From assembly GCF_003334255.1 (NCBI RefSeq), contig NZ_QOWU01000060.1: DNA of 31,035 bases; one strand, written 5' to 3'. This DNA comes from Escherichia coli (GTDB lineage: Bacteria; Pseudomonadota; Gammaproteobacteria; Enterobacterales; Enterobacteriaceae). The notes under the pieces are model-generated. The model worked only from the letters and a program-made list of their open reading frames with translations, ran no database searches and was not told the origin of the DNA. A program made the translations under genes and the position numbers. Positions 6,143-6,379 of this stretch are shown one piece after another (the first letter of the stretch is position 1; each line of letters opens with the position of its first letter).

Positions 6143-6173
6143 CTTCTTCTTTGCCTGCTCATCCCTTTCTGAC

Positions 6174-6189
6174 AGCAGAAATCATGCCA
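6174..6189 (-). promoter_or_regulatory. sigma54 (-24/-12) promoter for zraSR
   Basis: Minus strand TGGCATgatttCTGCT: GG and GC elements at the canonical spacing; located 32-47 bp upstream of the zraS start. Confidence 0.7.
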
Positions 6190-6240
6190 TCTTTTATCAG
6201 CGCTTACCCTGCGCTGTAACACAAAGGCTTAAGTTTCAAT

Positions 6241-6286
6241 GAGTAAAAATGACTCGCTACCCGCAGCAGGCGAGTCATTTTTACTC
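6241..6286. promoter_or_regulatory. ZraR enhancer (UAS): perfect 17-bp inverted repeat between the divergent sigma54 promoters
   Basis: GAGTAAAAATGACTCGC (6241-6257), 12-bp spacer, GCGAGTCATTTTTACTC (6270-6286); exact reverse complements, centred between the zraS and zraP sigma54 promoters. Confidence 0.8.
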
Positions 6287-6328
6287 GTTTATCATGCCAG
6301 ATTACCCGTCATATCAGCGTTTCATCGT

Positions 6329-6344
6329 TGGCACGGAAGATGCA
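6329..6344 (+). promoter_or_regulatory. sigma54 (-24/-12) promoter for zraP
   Basis: TGGCACggaagATGCA with GG and GC at canonical spacing, 36-51 bp upstream of the zraP ATG. Confidence 0.75.
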
Positions 6345-6379
6345 ATACCCGAAGTAAGACAACCACTGGAGGATTAACC

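Follow-up and report, generated by a model that had tools for sequence, protein, structure and literature searches.

The question raised by this locus is how two divergently transcribed genes, zraS and zraP, are controlled from the 237-bp spacer that separates them, and what part a perfect inverted repeat near the middle of that spacer plays. We use "the window" for the whole stretch of 31,035 nucleotides of Escherichia coli DNA that was analysed. A sequence-only reading had taken positions 6143-6379 for the zraS/zraP control region, with divergent sigma-54 promoters around an inverted-repeat enhancer, and had called the system well known. The identification agrees with NCBIfam, RefSeq and identity to MG1655, and the region has indeed already been characterised in E. 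coli K-12. The spacer is the known E. coli zraSR-zraP sigma-54 control region, to which the consensus and the spacing statistics given below add detail rather than novelty.

Positions 6068-6468 correspond to E. coli K-12 MG1655 4201600-4202000 with 0 mismatches (coordinate mapping g = 4208068 - w), and the 238-bp stretch 6143-6380 is present in 5420 of 5426 complete E. coli genomes. The K-12 zraP / zraSR (hydHG) region, which is curated in RegulonDB, has the identical sequence, genes, sigma-54 motifs and ZraR-bound region, and we found no difference between it and the window. The genes and the ribosome-binding site at issue are these:

3423-4748, minus strand: zraR, open reading frame; NCBIfam NF007689, 994.8 bits (cut-off 760).
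4745-6142, minus strand: zraS, sensor histidine kinase, first gene of the zraSR operon, open reading frame; NCBIfam NF007688, 841.6 bits (cut-off 479).
6368-6372, plus strand: GGAGG, ribosome-binding site of zraP, 7 nt before the ATG; GGAG is invariant in the cross-genus alignment of seven sequences.
6380-6805, plus strand: zraP, periplasmic CpxP-like chaperone/modulator, 141 aa; NCBIfam NF008584, 274.4 bits (cut-off 200), residues 1-141 covered.

All three proteins score above the curated NCBIfam equivalog cut-offs, and the RefSeq annotation of the 100%-identical region agrees on the gene identities. It also agrees on the start of zraP at 6380, the methionine from which a signal-peptide-like N-terminus begins, and on the synteny (purD-zraR-zraS / zraP-yjaH-hupA), in which the divergent zraP and zraSR arrangement of the ZraPSR system is present. 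ZraR carries the Pfam domains Response_reg (receiver), Sigma54_activat (AAA+) and, at residues 403-440, HTH_8 (Fis-type), and its residues 141-441 match the solved ZraR structure, PDB 1OJL (E = 2.7e-177). ZraS has 465 aa in the window and in K-12 and 458 aa in one O157:H7 genome (L001 2124-3500), a 21-nt in-frame length difference within the gene. Elsewhere in the window, Rfam matches at the gathering threshold comprise a TPP riboswitch (11788-11888, plus strand), the sroH sRNA (17581-17741, plus strand) and P26 (27077-27138, minus strand).

Two -24/-12 boxes flank the centre of the spacer, in divergent orientation:

6174-6189, minus strand: sigma-54 promoter of zraSR, box TGGCATGATTTCTGCT; predicted start about 6163.
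6329-6344, plus strand: sigma-54 promoter of zraP, box TGGCACGGAAGATGCA; predicted start about 6355.

The minus-strand box is identical to sigma-54 ChIP-seq motif OS39 (ATGGCATGATTTCTGCT, 21 nt from zraS) and the plus-strand box to motif OS38 (TTGGCACGGAAGATGCA, 25 nt from zraP; both PMC4591121), so the two promoters that had been called from the letters of the window coincide, letter for letter, with published ones. In each, GG and GC doublets lie 10 bp apart; relative to TGGCAC-N5-TTGCW, TGGCATGATTTCTGCT has 2 mismatches and TGGCACGGAAGATGCA has 1. Because agreement with this consensus is not by itself above chance in the 31-kb window (21 matches with at most 2 mismatches, 19.6 expected), the promoter calls rest on position, orientation, conservation and published ChIP-seq rather than on the motif match. 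Both boxes are correctly oriented and close upstream of their genes, and the published ChIP-seq places sigma-54 on them in vivo. The zraS box fits TGGCATGNTNTCTGCT in 50 of 50 enterobacterial loci and is identical in 43, and the zraP box is conserved across genera. Dependence of transcription on rpoN is reported in the literature, and neither a sigma-70-like promoter nor a terminator was predicted within 6100-6420. The ChIP-seq motif positions (PMC4591121) put the starts near 6355 for zraP and 6163 for zraS. The layout, which had been called symmetric, is therefore only roughly so, since the centre of the repeat at 6263.5 lies about 100 bp from the zraS start and about 91 bp from the zraP start.

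Between the two promoters, positions 6241-6257 read GAGTAAAAATGACTCGC and positions 6270-6286 are the exact reverse complement, separated by the 12 bp TACCCGCAGCAG (6258-6269), just as the sequence-only reading had described. In a repeat search the inverted repeat reached 20 nt (6238-6257 / 6270-6289) with a single mismatch. Allowing at most 3 mismatches, the 17-mer matches the 31-kb window at the two arms alone, against an expectation of 0.09, and two matches were reached in 1 of 100 shuffles. Each arm is moreover dyad-symmetric in itself, with Y-8 facing R+8, G-7 facing C+7, R-6 facing Y+6, G-5 facing C+5 and T-4 facing A+4. For this reason the element is best parsed as two 17-bp sites, 14 bp apart:

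6240-6256, plus strand: ZraR site 1 (zraS-proximal), 17-bp dyad TGAGT-AAAAATG-ACTCG, centre 6248; fits the consensus YGRGTAAAAATGACYCR from 50 loci and is overlapped by ChIP-exo peak_9.
6257-6270, no strand: 14-bp spacer between the dyads, including the 12-bp spacer at 6258-6269; near-constant length, free sequence.
6271-6287, minus strand: ZraR site 2 (zraP-proximal), 17-bp dyad CGAGT-CATTTTT-ACTCG, centre 6279, inverted relative to site 1; conserved and overlapped by ChIP-exo peak_9.

Leonhartsberger et al. (2001) reportedly described "two inverted repeats separated by a 14 bp spacer", wording that fits 6240-6256 / 6271-6287 with the spacer at 6257-6270. The site centres are 31 bp apart, three helical turns, and so fall on the same face of the helix; they lie at about -76 and -107 from the predicted zraP start and at about -85 and -116 from the predicted zraS start. 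By analogy with related activators, the element is best read as two ZraR-dimer sites with centres 31-33 bp apart. The asymmetric centre AAAAATG is invariant and the inverted orientation of the two sites is always kept, neither of which is explained by purely symmetric recognition by a dimer; the A5TG centre may act through DNA shape or bending.

One alternative is that these conserved A-tract sites are occupied mainly by a DNA-bending nucleoid protein such as Fis or IHF and that the binding of ZraR takes place elsewhere in the spacer. With its A/T-rich centre, the 15-bp G-N13-C core does resemble the general format of Fis sites, and the DNA-binding domain of ZraR is itself of Fis type. Published binding data, mapped onto the window, speak for ZraR instead. 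The strongest ZraR ChIP-exo peak in MG1655 (peak_9, signal-to-noise 72.97, 4201786-4201818; PMC7657598 supplement) falls at 6250-6282, inside the repeat; at 33 bp it is shorter than the 48 bp of the pair and spans only the inner half of each site. Of 86 clones selected in vitro by genomic SELEX with purified ZraR alone, 81 came from the zraS-zraP spacer, the only high-affinity target (PMC8249747), and nothing else that is conserved in the spacer could serve as a ZraR site. ZraR footprints elsewhere in the spacer were what would have counted against the repeat as the enhancer; the strongest peak lies on the repeat and gSELEX selects the spacer. We regard occupancy mainly by a nucleoid protein as highly improbable, and return to ZraR as the protein that binds the two sites.

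Both transcripts depend on this regulator: upon zraR deletion in the presence of zinc, RNA-seq records a change of -12.7 log2 for zraP and -3.2 log2 for zraS (PMC7657598 supplement). Sigma-54 on both boxes, ZraR on the repeat and the ZraR dependence of both transcripts have been shown by published data, and coordinate mapping confirms them for the window. The element has the properties of a bEBP enhancer, namely two dyad-symmetric sites, within the typical range of about 70-150 bp upstream, phased on one face of the helix and bound by the cognate activator (ChIP-exo, gSELEX).

Experiment has largely answered the suggested search for additional 17-mer targets: gSELEX gives one strong target (PMC8249747), alongside minor peaks (potF, relB/ydfV, mltB), and ChIP-exo gives zraP/zraSR plus mgtA. 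A second ChIP-exo peak near zraP (peak_8, signal-to-noise 34) lies at 6370-6395, on the ribosome-binding site and start codon and 15-40 bp downstream of the predicted start. There is no ZraR-like site within 6370-6395, and this peak could be a cross-link through the looped promoter complex. The mgtA peak likewise has no ZraR-like site inside it; the nearest match, CGGGTAAAAATTTCTTT, agrees at 13 of 17 positions with a good left half only, lies about 60 bp downstream at the start of mgtA (L080 232-248, MG1655 4467631-4467647), and is borderline relative to chance.

How general is this architecture? For a cross-genus alignment with the window we took the loci of Salmonella, two Citrobacter, [Enterobacter] lignolyticus, Kosakonia and a divergent E. 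coli, to which ZraP proteins or BLAST had led. Across these 7 loci from 6 genera, the conserved sequence is confined to three islands, the zraS box, the two repeat arms and the zraP box. Two more protein-anchored loci have the same conserved pattern, and the exact 11-bp cores of the arms are present in 9 of 9 loci reached through ZraP protein or BLAST. A scan of species-representative genomes for GTAAAAATGAC-N14-26-GTCATTTTTAC, which was not exhaustive, returned 70 loci. About 45 of the 70 are from Enterobacteriaceae (Citrobacter, Klebsiella, Kluyvera, Kosakonia, Salmonella, Escherichia, Trabulsiella, Phytobacter and Entomohabitans), all of them in a zraS-zraP spacer; in the 41 pattern-retrieved loci the 11-bp cores are invariant by construction. 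The same scan returned no locus of E. coli proper or S. enterica subsp. enterica although the window and one further locus (L004) fit the pattern, so that the absence of additional matches is weak evidence.

From 50 loci we obtain an arm consensus of YGRGT-AAAAATG-ACYCR, in which positions -8, -6, +6 and +8 are degenerate while G-7 and C+7 are invariant, though not forced by the search pattern; in a 2016 Salmonella review the sequence of the ZraR enhancer was still entered as "not known". Between the 11-bp cores, 32 loci have 20 bp, 16 have 21 bp and 2 have 22 bp, equivalent to 31-33 bp from centre to centre, whereas the sequence of the 14-bp spacer is not conserved across genera. Within the genus, too, substitutions among nine Escherichia sequences are concentrated in the inter-arm spacer and the flanks and leave the arms almost untouched, and 4357 of 5420 E. 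coli genomes carry the 56 bp at 6236-6291 unchanged. The enhancer is thus conserved along with its regulator across species while the flanks drift.

The remaining matches to the core pattern are of a different kind. About 24 of the 70, from unrelated phyla, are without YGRGT flanks, a ZraP homologue or a close ZraS homologue, and we set them aside as unrelated hairpins. Among these, contigs of Patescibacteria and Omnitrophota (L014, L015, L029, L037, L058, L062) share a conserved hairpin-like element, GGTKNNGTAAAAATGAC...GTCATTTTTACNNMACC, which matched the core pattern but has no relation to ZraR. A separate case is the contig of an uncultured proteobacterium MAG (CATLTV010000243.1; L041 315-356), which has a ZraR-type double site, CGAGTAAAAATGACTCA ... 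TGTGTCATTTTTACTCA, with a 20-bp core gap. It comes directly after the stop codon of a response regulator of the NtrC family that shares 37% identity with ZraR, and lies downstream of a histidine kinase and about 170 bp upstream of a same-strand membrane-protein gene, with no adjoining zraP and only a weak sigma-54-like box nearby.

The wider sample also bears on whether the complementarity of the arms is itself the functional feature, the repeat then being one long palindrome that acts as a DNA cruciform, an RNA hairpin (attenuator or terminator) or a single 46-bp operator. In E. coli the arms are perfect over 17 bp, and a 21-bp stem is predicted for the 56-nt stretch (-18.8 kcal/mol, z = -8.7). 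Across the 50 loci, however, complementarity is not maintained: uninterrupted complementary arms range from 11 to 21 bp (median 14), and in 14 loci nothing pairs beyond the 11-bp core. Perfection of the repeat, which had been singled out as unusual for an operator, does hold in E. coli, but as a feature of Escherichia that is neither conserved nor required. The two arms vary independently, position -6 being A in 26 and G in 24 loci in the left arm and A in 48 and G in 2 in the right, and we looked in the 50 loci for compensatory changes that keep the arms complementary across species and found none. Independent variation at -6 and +6 fits degenerate recognition by a protein (R/Y) rather than pairing. 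Furthermore, transcription from the two predicted starts runs outward from the repeat, which is therefore not transcribed from any known promoter; there is no terminator-like T-run after it; and the loop length differs by 1-2 bp from genus to genus. We reject the hairpin or cruciform reading on account of the independent variation of the arms, and consider function through arm complementarity in any of these forms very unlikely. The element continues to be read here as two separate ZraR sites.

The distances from the enhancer to the promoters are these:

Left core to zraS box: 51-53 bp in 49 loci, 65 bp in 1.
Right core to zraP box: 54-56 bp in 37 loci, 44 bp in 6, all Escherichia.
zraP box unmatched by the search pattern: 7 loci.

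Relative to the other genera, Escherichia lacks 11 bp between the enhancer and the zraP promoter, a loss of one helical turn. The motifs ATCATGCCA and TATCAGCGYTT are found twice, once to each side of the enhancer and in unchanged order, at 6181-6205 and 6291-6322. In the left copy, ATCATGCCA forms the -24 element of the zraS promoter; the right copy is without a usable -12 element, is specific to Escherichia and varies within the genus. Because it lies in the stretch that is 11 bp shorter in Escherichia, the right copy may be the relic of a local rearrangement.

The spacer also holds open reading frames, and a coding interpretation has to be weighed against the regulatory one. The feature in question is:

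6239-6379, plus strand: upstream extension of the zraP frame, non-coding; spans the enhancer and the promoter and also holds a 42-codon open reading frame at 6249-6377.

Under a coding reading, zraP would start at 6239 and encode 188 aa, or the 42-codon frame would be a real small protein. Both frames are indeed open, that of 6239-6805 being in frame with zraP (ATG at 6380); ZraP variants extended to 174-186 aa are found in databases, and some RefSeq E. coli genomes annotate 6249-6377 as a "hypothetical protein" of 42 aa (WP_001297563.1). The pattern of conservation is nevertheless not that of a coding sequence, since outside the regulatory islands the stretch cannot be aligned between genera and carries an 11-bp indel, which is not a multiple of 3. 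The 141-aa ZraP satisfies its NCBIfam model end to end, a GGAGG precedes the 6380 ATG by 7 nt with a signal-peptide-like N-terminus running from that methionine, and the predicted sigma-54 start at about 6355 is downstream of both candidate start codons. We find it scarcely credible that the stretch is coding. The frame from 6239 had been called spurious from the outset, a judgement that the failure to align, the 11-bp indel, the fit of the 141-aa model and the start position all support, and the 42-codon frame, which lies entirely in enhancer and promoter DNA, is almost certainly a spurious call as well.

With these alternatives weighed, the spacer is very probably a bidirectional sigma-54 control region in which one two-site ZraR enhancer serves two divergent promoters. 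Two characterised enhancers are instructive comparisons. The NtrC enhancer of glnAp2, TGCACC(A/T)4TGGTGCA, is likewise made of two 17-bp dyads with an A/T-rich centre upstream of a sigma-54 promoter, its sites lie about three helical turns apart, and NtrC and ZraR are both response-regulator bEBPs with a Fis-type HTH. They differ in the half-site, TGCACC for NtrC and YGRGT for ZraR, and the ZraR enhancer, which acts on two divergent promoters, is at a shorter distance from them. The NorR enhancer (norR-norVW) consists of three GT-N7-AC inverted repeats in a divergent spacer, with the same GT-N7-AC core as the ZraR sites, and NorR resembles ZraR in that its gene is divergent from its target and that it is a single-target regulator by gSELEX. 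By contrast, NorR uses three sites together with IHF and is activated by a ligand (NO), while phosphorylation activates ZraR, which uses two sites; we identified no IHF site in the zraS-zraP spacer.

On these precedents and the conservation described above, we envisage that RNA polymerase-sigma-54 would wait in closed complexes on both divergent -24/-12 promoters, and that one ZraR dimer would bind each 17-bp site through its C-terminal Fis-type helix-turn-helix. Upon zinc or envelope stress ZraS would phosphorylate ZraR, and the tethered dimers would nucleate an AAA+ hexamer that loops to either promoter and opens it with ATP. The outcome would be strong induction of zraP and autoregulation of zraSR. 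ZraR is described in the literature as hexamer-forming; a dimer on each site and a hexamer on the pair is a stoichiometry suggested by analogy. A more elaborate version, which we put forward as speculation and think rather unlikely, is that a single enhancer-bound hexamer is shared and competed for by both promoters, that the AAAAATG / CATTTTT centres fix the polarity of the dimers, and that the 11-bp loss in Escherichia re-tunes the ratio of zraP to zraSR output with the phase kept. Our literature search found no description of this shared-hexamer or promoter-competition reading.

The significance of the analysis extends little beyond annotation hygiene. Footprinting, ChIP-seq, ChIP-exo and gSELEX have already mapped the region, a textbook-style sigma-54 / bEBP switch that is also in use as a zinc biosensor promoter. 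The open reading frames called through the regulatory DNA (6239-6805 and 6249-6377) are artefacts, the second of them carried by some RefSeq genomes. The cross-genus ZraR consensus, YGRGT-AAAAATG-ACYCR in two copies 31-33 bp apart, together with the enhancer-promoter distances, could aid the annotation of zraP promoters and the design of biosensors.
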